Source: Sulfolobales archaeon
Lineage (GTDB): Archaea; Thermoproteota; Thermoprotei_A; Sulfolobales; AG1
NCBI GenBank assembly: GCA_038867615.1
Contig: JAWBYA010000002.1
Location: 256,001 to 320,000 of the forward strand
DNA: 64,000 nucleotides
Reading direction: 5' to 3'
Positions 17,490 through 44,383 of the stretch are shown one piece after another (the first letter of the stretch is position 1; every line of letters begins with the position of its first letter). A program made the position numbers and the translations under genes. A model generated the notes under the pieces. That model was given only the letters and a program-made list of their open reading frames with translations, was not told the origin of the DNA and did no database searches.

Positions 17490-17505
17490 GTTAAACCTTT
17501 AAATC
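17490..17505 (+). promoter_or_regulatory. BRE/TATA-like promoter of the tRNA-Gln 5' half
   Basis: GTTAAACCTTTAAATC, TATA-like core about 25 nt upstream of tRNA position 1. Confidence 0.55.
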
Positions 17506-17526: not shown

Positions 17527-17564
17527 AGCCGGGTCGTCTAGCGGCCAAGGATGCGGGGCTCTGG
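17527..17564 (+). tRNA. tRNA-Gln(CUG) 5' half only (positions 1-37); candidate split tRNA
   Basis: AGCCGGG TC GTCT AGCGGCCAA GGAT G CGGGG CT CTG G: A1 start, intact D arm, anticodon CTG at 17561-17563; no T arm or acceptor 3' strand follows. Confidence 0.8.
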
Positions 17565-17580
17565 CCCTCCGCGCCGCCCC

Positions 17581-17633
17581 CTGATGAGAAGAGGGTCTTC
17601 TGATCATGTGATGTGTGCTGGAACTCCTGATCC
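17581..17633 (+). ncRNA. C/D-box guide sRNA immediately after the tRNA half
   Basis: TGATGA (17582-87), 12 nt, CTGA (17600-03), TGATGT (17609-14), 12 nt, CTGA (17627-30): canonical archaeal double-guide geometry. Confidence 0.8.
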
Positions 17634-17653: not shown

Positions 17654-18292
17654 CTACCTATAACCGATCCTCTCGAGCATGCTCGATATAGCCCCCAAAG
17701 ACCTTTCAGCATATAGGCATGAGGGATCCTTATCACCGCATCCCCTCGATAGATGCTCCCTCAACACCCTCAGCTCCTCGAGAAGCGATTCCAAGTACCA
17801 CTTATTGCCAACATACCCCTCCCCCACGAGCTTCGGGCTACCCTCTGCAAAACCTTCTGGGTAGTACATGTCCCTAACTAGGTAGTAGCCGCTCACTATC
17901 ATGAGAGATCCTAGCCTTGTAGCCCCGGGATGGATCCCTCTGCTTAGTAGTGAGACAGTTTCATGATCCCTTACATATGGGATCATAACCCTCAGACCCT
18001 CACCAAAGATCCCCAGCAAATGCGGGAGGATCTCTCCTAAGGCGTTATAGAAATTCTCTGAGAGATCTGTTTCGTTAAACTCGACCCATGGTCTGTAGTT
18101 CTCCCTGCCAGTAAATACTACAAACCCTATCTCAAGACCCTTGATCCTGGATGTAACCTTATAAGCACCCCTGATCCTCCAACCCCTGCACTCAATGATC
18201 GTTGTTCCAGGGATTCTCCCAAGTTCCTGGCATATGCCTGCCTGGCCCACACGTAACCCTAGCAATATATATATCCTCGCAGGATTTAACAT
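17654..18292 (-). CDS. DUF1122 family protein
   Basis: FTGRENYRPWVE and RDMYYPEGFAEGSPKL motifs. Confidence 0.75.
   Translation of the reverse strand: MLNPARIYILLGLRVGQAGICQELGRIPGTTIIECRGWRIRGAYKVTSRIKGLEIGFVVFTGRENYRPWVEFNETDLSENFYNALGEILPHLLGIFGEGLRVMIPYVRDHETVSLLSRGIHPGATRLGSLMIVSGYYLVRDMYYPEGFAEGSPKLVGEGYVGNKWYLESLLEELRVLREHLSRGCGDKDPSCLYAERSLGAISSMLERIGYR

Positions 18293-44309: not shown

Positions 44310-44383
<74 letters not shown>

Follow-up and report, generated by a model that had tools for sequence, protein, structure and literature searches.

A C/D box sRNA directly behind the 5' half of a split tRNA-Gln(CUG) gene in a Sulfolobales archaeon

Introduction

C/D box guide RNAs (sRNAs) are borne in tRNA introns in the euryarchaeal pre-tRNA-Trp and in the tRNA-Met intron of N. 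equitans. In the DNA analyzed here (the window, 64,000 nucleotides from a Sulfolobales archaeon), the 5' half of a split tRNA-Gln(CUG) is followed on the same strand by a GC-rich tail and, almost without interval, by box C of a C/D sRNA. The locus raises the question of how an sRNA so placed is transcribed, how it is freed from the tRNA half, and how the two came to lie together. An earlier note, made from the sequence of the window, had offered three answers: a split version of the tRNA-Trp intron design, an sRNA that has captured a tRNA promoter, or an RNP that helps the two tRNA halves assemble. The locus was compared with the rest of its genome (G000), with the genomes of relatives, with metagenome contigs and with RNA libraries. 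The genus of the window is referred to as g1, and two related genera as g2 and g3.

Structure of the locus

Over the window, ARAGORN called only the tRNA-Met at 44310-44383 and did not call the split half at 17527-17564. Rfam with gathering thresholds likewise returned that tRNA-Met only, and nothing at 17527-17633. The features of the locus and of its partner are collected in Table 1. The 5' exon is 38 nt long, with one extra base in the D loop. The C at 17581 is the only unpaired nucleotide between the tail helix and box C, so that the coordinates confirm the earlier placing of box C 1 nt past the GC-rich helix; they bear out equally its description of all four boxes with 12-nt guides (17582-17630). 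The stop codon of the convergent DUF1122 gene is reached 23 nt beyond box D. Upstream of the half, the TATA-like element is the putative promoter for the unit of half, tail and sRNA, and AT-rich boxes (aagctttataa / cctttaaa) are found at equal distance upstream in relatives and in metagenome contigs.

Table 1. Coordinates of the tRNA half, the C/D sRNA and the partner half (window positions unless a contig is named)
Feature	Position	Strand	Remarks
TATA-like element CTTTAAAT	17497-17504	+	Read from sequence; 22 nt upstream of tRNA position 1
5' exon, split tRNA-Gln(CUG)	17527-17564	+	AGCCGGG...CTCTGG; positions 1-37, anticodon CTG, ends in G37
GC-rich tail CCCTCCGCGCCGCCCCC	17565-17581	+	17 nt; 5' part of the "intron"
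Tail helix strand CGCGCCGCCCC	17570-17580	+	Pairs with leader GGGGCGGCGCG of the 3' half, contig C5
Box C TGATGA	17582-17587	+	Sequence, Rfam in E-value mode, conservation
D' guide GAAGAGGGTCTT	17588-17599	+	12 nt; matches 23S UGACCCUCUU
Box D' CTGA	17600-17603	+	Sequence, conservation
D'-C' spacer TCATG	17604-17608	+	5 nt, variable among relatives
Box C' TGATGT	17609-17614	+	Sequence, conservation
D guide GTGCTGGAACTC	17615-17626	+	12 nt; matches 23S AAGUUCCGGCGC
Box D CTGA	17627-17630	+	Sequence, conservation
DUF1122 protein gene, convergent neighbor (context)	17654-18292	-	PF06557, E=4.3e-22
Leader GGGGCGGCGCGCCGGGGAGAA of the 3' half	C5:102579-102599		11 bases are the exact complement of tail 17570-17580
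3' exon of tRNA-Gln	C5:102600-102635		Encoded CCA directly after

The partner half and the splicing junction

No intact tRNA-Gln gene was found by ARAGORN in the genome (a 94% complete draft of 2.22 Mb), so the half is apparently needed by the cell. No partner emerged from a search with the reverse complement of the entire 18-nt tail and up to 3 mismatches; a search for an acceptor 3' strand behind a T-arm instead located a 3' half of tRNA-Gln at G000:C5:102579-102638. The tRNA-Asp(gtc) with a 134-nt intron that ARAGORN placed at C5:102408-102637 was discarded as an artefact built on this real 3' half. When the exons were joined in silico, ARAGORN called a tRNA-Gln(ctg) cloverleaf. A second 5' half, that of tRNA-Gln(UUG), lies at G000:C9:3025-3062 and gives tRNA-Gln(ttg) when joined; because its tail carries GCGCCGCCCC, the two 5' halves (CUG and UUG) have the single 3' half on C5 in common.

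Two 5' halves with one 3' half were also observed more widely, in g1 and g3, and g2 retains an intact or intron-bearing UUG gene. CCA is encoded after the discriminator in the 3' halves (L045-L056) of g1, g3 and the split outgroups, and not in those of g2.

Tail and leader form a perfect 11-bp helix, which is present in the minimum free energy (MFE) structure of the cofolded halves. This structure (-85.8 kcal/mol) includes the acceptor stem, the D arm and the T arm as well, but is without an anticodon stem or bulge-helix-bulge and has a local hairpin in the anticodon region instead. A bulge-helix-bulge junction (hBHBh') drawn by hand came to -65.0 kcal/mol versus -74.2 kcal/mol for the MFE fold without the sRNA, and is thus ~9 kcal/mol less stable. 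In the drawn junction CGGGG pairs with CCCCG in the anticodon stem and CUCU with GGAG in the central helix, and the bulges read GG↓C and AA↓C. Beyond these come a CC/GG pair, then a 2x2 loop within h', and last the 11-bp helix. Each stem position in the drawing is a standard pair, in a model that ranks below the MFE fold. In genus g2 the bulge-helix-bulge is present as the strict motif. Judged from its sequence and from its partner, 17527-17564 is a real 5' half of a split tRNA-Gln(CUG).

The enzymes expected for joining the halves are encoded in the genome, with two paralogues of the splicing endonuclease (EndA) and RtcB. In G005 (L209/L221) and G023 (L220/L222), RtcB is found in ORFs of 952 and 954 aa whose match is split (residues 4-103 and 101-485), which is consistent with an intein-sized insertion.

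Split tRNA-Gln genes in relatives

Tail and leader covary in 13 genomes, which represent five lineages at genus or family level, the sequences differing and complementarity being kept (CGCGCCGCCCC/GGGGCGGCGCG, CCGCCACCGCC/GGCGGTGGCGG, CCGCCACCGTCTC/GAGACGGTGGCGG and TCACAACTGCCCTCCC/GGGAGGGCAGTTGTGA). The mean duplex energy of a genome's own tail and leader is -36.9 kcal/mol, with all 13 pairs at or below -30.6, compared with a mean of -24.0 kcal/mol for cross-lineage pairs, of which 8/126 reach -30.6, the weakest own value.

Ten outgroup loci of tRNA-Gln(CUG) were compared within the order. Three are intact, four carry an 18-24-nt cis intron at 37/38, and three are split, with matching 3' halves found for all three. 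The cis intron of G034 has the same ends as the tail and leader here (CCCTCCG...GGGGAGAA).

The outgroup splits, each at 37/38 with matching tail and leader, are L011+L185 (G021), L012+L188 (G023) and L016+L186 (G033); they represent two other families of the order, single-contig genomes included. No C/D-like element was found beside the split Gln halves of these two families. In G021 another tRNA-like sequence (...GGTTCAAATCCCCGCGGGCCCGCCA) ends ~20 nt before the start of the 3' half (L185, C1 ~665740-665900), and the locus may be a dicistron of a tRNA and a tRNA half. In G011 the locus beside the divergent sRNA (L019/L058, C33) is an intact tRNA-Gln(UUG), the last ~15 upstream bases of which match those of a second UUG copy (L033, C64). 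Neither a CUG half nor a free 3' half was found in G011, where, from these sequences, the split gene looks to have been replaced by a copy of an intact one.

The C/D sRNA and its targets

A strict four-box pattern gave 2 matches in the 2.22-Mb genome and none in any of 10 mononucleotide shuffles. In E-value mode, Rfam returned sub-threshold matches to sR20 (RF01140; 28.4 bits versus a gathering threshold of 44, E=5e-4) and sR3 (RF01133; 20.9 bits versus 41). The likeness to these families consists of box spacing and, in the alignment, partly similar guides; as both scores lie under gathering, the sRNA is a member of neither by the Rfam criterion. Conservation of the boxes and guide cores extends over g1, g2 and g3, among homologues found with search patterns that themselves required several boxes and guide cores. 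The D'-C' spacer varies among the relatives (TCATG, CCATG, GGATCG, TATA, GCGTA, GTAG and TAATGG) and the boxes are fixed. A lack of box conservation in relatives had been named in the earlier note as an outcome that would refute its reading; the boxes are kept in three genera.

The sub-threshold Rfam scores might be taken to mean that the four boxes are a chance match or a dead gene. This is hardly credible in view of the empty shuffled genomes, of the boxes and guide cores kept in three genera and 11 metagenome contigs while spacer and flanks vary, and of the two 23S rRNA matches described below, which adjoin each other. By its boxes, guides and conservation, 17582-17630 is a real four-box C/D sRNA.

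Both guides match 23S rRNA and not the tRNA. The D' guide is joined to 23S UGACCCUCUU by 9 uninterrupted Watson-Crick pairs, which put C1920 (helix 69, 3' strand) at N+5. The D guide forms 9 Watson-Crick and 2 G-U pairs with 23S AAGUUCCGGCGC, with U1956 at N+5 (E. coli numbering for both, by alignment to E. coli 23S). In the organism's own partly assembled 23S, 36 nt separate the two sites, and three relatives have them too. A match of a single guide is common among shuffled guides (216/2000 and 437/2000 for the two guides), but both members of a shuffled pair matched within 700 nt in only 8/2000 cases. Domain IV helices 68-71 of 23S are described as a conserved methylation hotspot in passages of PMC7994747, and the C1920 and U1956 targets fall inside it. 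Fibrillarin (C3:32240-32914) and Nop5 (C3:33608-34285) are encoded in the genome. From these matches the guides are predicted to direct 2'-O-methylation of 23S C1920 and U1956.

The rRNA operon of the organism is partly assembled at contig ends (C4:226170-227290 and C9:47278-48314), covering 23S ~1875-2973 and 16S ~4-982. The 23S genes of G003 (L026) and G001 (L027) are 3658 and 4226 nt long and diverge from the organism's own 23S right after CUCUUA (~E. coli 1927), next to the site matched by the D' guide, a divergence suggestive of rRNA introns at ~1927 in both.

A C/D RNP so close to a splice junction might also act on its own precursor, the D' guide pairing with GGCCCTC at the exon/tail junction and either methylating it or aiding assembly of the halves. 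Clouet d'Orval reportedly found in 2001 that the tRNA carrying the tRNA-Trp intron is itself methylated under the guidance of that intron. The 7-bp pairing (one G-U) pointed out in the earlier note can be drawn, but 483 of 2000 shuffled guides pair with the junction equally well, which places it at chance level. Its N+5 nucleotide would be the first intron base, an uncompensated T>A change in G005 (CCCACC) costs it a base pair, and both g2 and g3 lack it. The D' guide moreover has a better, conserved match in 23S. Action on the precursor is accordingly a most improbable reading, and the proposal of an RNP that helps the halves assemble is without support, the guides matching 23S and the cis pairing being at chance level.

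Linkage and promoter elements among relatives

In g1, half, tail and sRNA are arranged as in the window, with box C 1-3 nt past the helix, in 5/6 genomes (G000, G001, G002, G003 and G005); in G004 (81% complete) only the UUG half was seen. All 11 metagenome contigs found by a fusion pattern keep box C 1-3 nt past the helix, a pattern that itself required several such features. Their tails are 17-19 nt long, the boxes are fixed, the D'-C' spacer is variable and the flanks are unrelated. In g3 the sRNA lies behind the tail after a 25-33-nt spacer, within which the TATA-like CATATATTA stands 22-28 nt before box C. In g2 it is divergent from the 5' half, being placed on the other strand ~65-70 nt upstream. 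A single inversion of the half gene would suffice to turn this divergent layout into the tandem one, whichever of the two came first.

Species genomes were scanned with a loose pattern, the >=80 loci listed being mostly bacterial chance matches, and at least 14 four-box homologues were obtained; among the matches listed, 2 are fused, 1 is in tandem with a spacer, 2 are divergent and 9 are unlinked to tRNA-Gln. The MAGs holding the listed homologues are labeled Desulfurococcaceae, Desulfurococcales, Sulfolobales, Thermosphaera and Thermoproteota. A pairing of the sRNA 3' flank (CCGG) with the leader was considered and dropped, the flank being unconserved.

The 55 nt upstream of box C are made up of tRNA body and GC tail. 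Between -45 and -13 from box C, the AT-richest 8-mer contains 4/8 A/T in 5/5 g1 genomes versus 7-8/8 A/T in the 14 other homologues (2/2 in g3, 4/4 in g2 and 8/8 in the outgroups). The five g1 genomes thus have no AT-rich, promoter-like element upstream of box C, and of the three options in the earlier note the capture of a tRNA promoter by the sRNA fits best, an AT-rich 8-mer being present in 0/5 g1 genomes versus 14/14 other homologues. A tree of RtcB (one gene; 25 rows, 381 columns) has the topology (g2,(g3,g1)) with support of 96-100. Taken with the layouts in g2, g3 and the outgroups, this tree indicates that the promoter-less fused state was derived on the branch to g1.

The sRNA might nevertheless be transcribed alone from a non-canonical promoter within the half or the tail, its abutment with the tRNA half reflecting genome compaction. 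Archaeal C/D sRNAs are described in a passage of PMC7994747, citing Tripp 2017, as often being without a recognizable promoter, ~20% having a TATA-like motif. A passage of the same source, however, ascribes promoter-less sRNAs to co-transcription with an upstream gene, as in the explanation preferred here. The scarcity of A/T in the tRNA body and tail of all five g1 genomes and an RNA-library contig that spans the junction (see Expression) also count against separate transcription, which is considered quite unlikely.

As another alternative, the locus may be a relic of an intron-borne C/D sRNA. The 37/38 intron of an ancestral tRNA-Gln(CUG) would have held the sRNA and the gene would have broken after it, or one rearrangement, its breakpoint in the intron, would have both split the gene and joined it to the sRNA gene. 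Opening a tRNA-Trp-type intron behind box D would give the present order of exon, bulge, helix strand, sRNA, helix strand, bulge and exon, and the G034 cis intron at 37/38 has the same ends. A single breakpoint would also produce the layout of g3, in which sRNA and promoter follow the tail directly, and in N. equitans C/D sRNAs flank split protein genes according to part of PMC3491384. On the other hand, the cis introns of the relatives (4 intron-bearing among the 10 outgroup loci) are 18-24 nt long with no sRNA inside, and the sRNA is unlinked to tRNA-Gln in 9/14 homologues among the matches listed. Because no C/D element accompanies the split tRNA-Gln(CUG) halves of two other families, the split may be older than the linkage, and in g2 the sRNA lies upstream of the half, away from the break. 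The layout of a split tRNA-Trp-type intron, as first proposed, is matched, but intron-borne descent is unsupported by the short cis introns and the mostly unlinked sRNA, and is judged decidedly improbable.

Expression

A 218-nt assembled contig in hot-spring RNA library X20 (record 7) bridges half, tail and sRNA and covers 17529-17631, with 53 nt preceding the junction of tail and box C and 50 nt following it. The contig derives from a close relative (4 substitutions, 2 indels), and downstream it matches loci L225, L227 and L230. Because it is an assembled contig, its ends, including those in the conserved tRNA body, say nothing on transcript starts or ends. Junction-spanning molecules are present in the library, tentatively as RNA, DNA carry-over being possible. 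A second RNA run (X22) yielded nothing. A joined form of the tRNA in X20 was rejected as evidence of trans-splicing, since it was also found in DNA run X7, where other organisms carry intact genes. From the arrangement of the sequence, half and sRNA are probably made as one transcript.

Discussion

The comparisons show two real, conserved genes that abut each other with no promoter-like element in between, a partner for the tRNA half, and guides that match rRNA. The likely explanation is a two-in-one gene, in which a split-tRNA half and a C/D sRNA are co-transcribed from a shared promoter, a formerly independent sRNA gene having lost its own. The promoter upstream of 17527 would drive a precursor of at least ~105 nt containing the tRNA-Gln(CUG) 5' half, the 17-nt GC tail and the C/D sRNA. 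[quoted passage not shown] The splicing endonuclease would then cut between G37 and C and between AA and C38, and RtcB would ligate the exons to give tRNA-Gln. Assembly with L7Ae, Nop5 and fibrillarin would protect the leftover tail-sRNA piece while its flanks are trimmed, and the released sRNA would guide 2'-O-methylation of 23S C1920 and U1956. Co-transcription, the order of the cuts and the methylation itself we infer. In evolution, an independent sRNA gene would have come to adjoin the 5' half in the family, with spacer and promoter being lost in g1.

It is unlikely, on the same evidence, that the junction preserves the breakpoint of the tRNA-Gln(CUG) split, that the fused RNA does more than ride along, or both. 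If the breakpoint reading were true, the locus would directly exemplify a split tRNA gene bordered by a C/D sRNA gene, a placement that Randau had proposed for N. equitans on the basis of its split protein genes. A fused RNA that does more might take either of two forms. Once the endonuclease has cut, RtcB may ligate the tail-sRNA piece to the leader of the 3' half, so that the guide RNA becomes trans-spliced and hairpin-capped, and the C/D RNP may serve as a 3' cap that stabilizes the tRNA half and ties the supply of guide to that of tRNA-Gln.

The proposed two-in-one gene was compared with three known systems. Dicistrons of a complete tRNA and a C/D sRNA, from which RNase Z frees the sRNA, are described in parts of PMC3491384 and PMC7994747 for N. 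equitans, I. hospitalis, T. tenax and plants. As in the dicistrons of those accounts, the sRNA here lies directly behind tRNA sequence on the same strand, has no promoter of its own, and is expected to be freed by tRNA processing. The dicistrons differ in that the upstream tRNA is complete and cleavage by RNase Z at its 3' end makes the 5' end of the sRNA, whereas here only a 5' half stands upstream, and its sequence contains no acceptor 3' strand or discriminator at which RNase Z would act. Because the acceptor 3' strand is missing, the available cut is that of the splicing endonuclease, 17 nt upstream of box C, and it needs the transcript of a second locus. In function the unit may be analogous to the dicistrons, with a cut that must differ.

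In the split tRNAs of N. equitans, Caldivirga and the Desulfurococcales, as here, the halves are separate, tail and leader are GC-rich and complementary, and the split is at 37/38. Two 5' halves (CUG and UUG) with one 3' half are found as for N. equitans tRNA-Glu, to judge from passages of PMC3218864 and PMC4090602. A tRNA-Gln(CUG) split at 37/38 is absent from the split-tRNA table in the passages of PMC3218864 covered here, and the same source gives the N. equitans tRNA-Gln(UUG) as split at 32/33. No tRNA half with a guide RNA in its tail, or fused to a C/D sRNA, was found in a full-text literature search that extended over main texts.

The third system is the pre-tRNA-Trp type. Here too the sRNA would lie beyond the helix of a bulge-helix-bulge at 37/38 and be freed by the splicing endonuclease. 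In that type, however, there is one transcript, the intron is excised whole (and circularized), and the guides target the host tRNA, whereas the present halves are on different contigs and form two transcripts, and the guides match 23S rRNA. The organism's own tRNA-Trp gene (G000:C1:317891-318026) has a 59-nt intron at the canonical site, in which no C/D boxes are recognizable. The arrangement is a new twist on two known archaeal arrangements and not a new kind.

Split tRNA genes and promoter-less C/D sRNAs both serve as windows on the breakup, movement and processing of archaeal RNA genes. In this organism one transcript would carry a tRNA half together with an sRNA guiding two methylations in that part of 23S which lies at the subunit interface. 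To be released, the guide would require assembly in trans with the transcript of another locus, and no such tRNA-sRNA fusion occurs in the portion of the literature covered here. The sRNA is on the opposite strand in g2, in tandem and with a promoter in g3, and fused in g1, and these three stages constitute a natural series for the loss of an sRNA promoter. The arrangement also permits asking whether split genes are marked at their borders by C/D sRNA genes.
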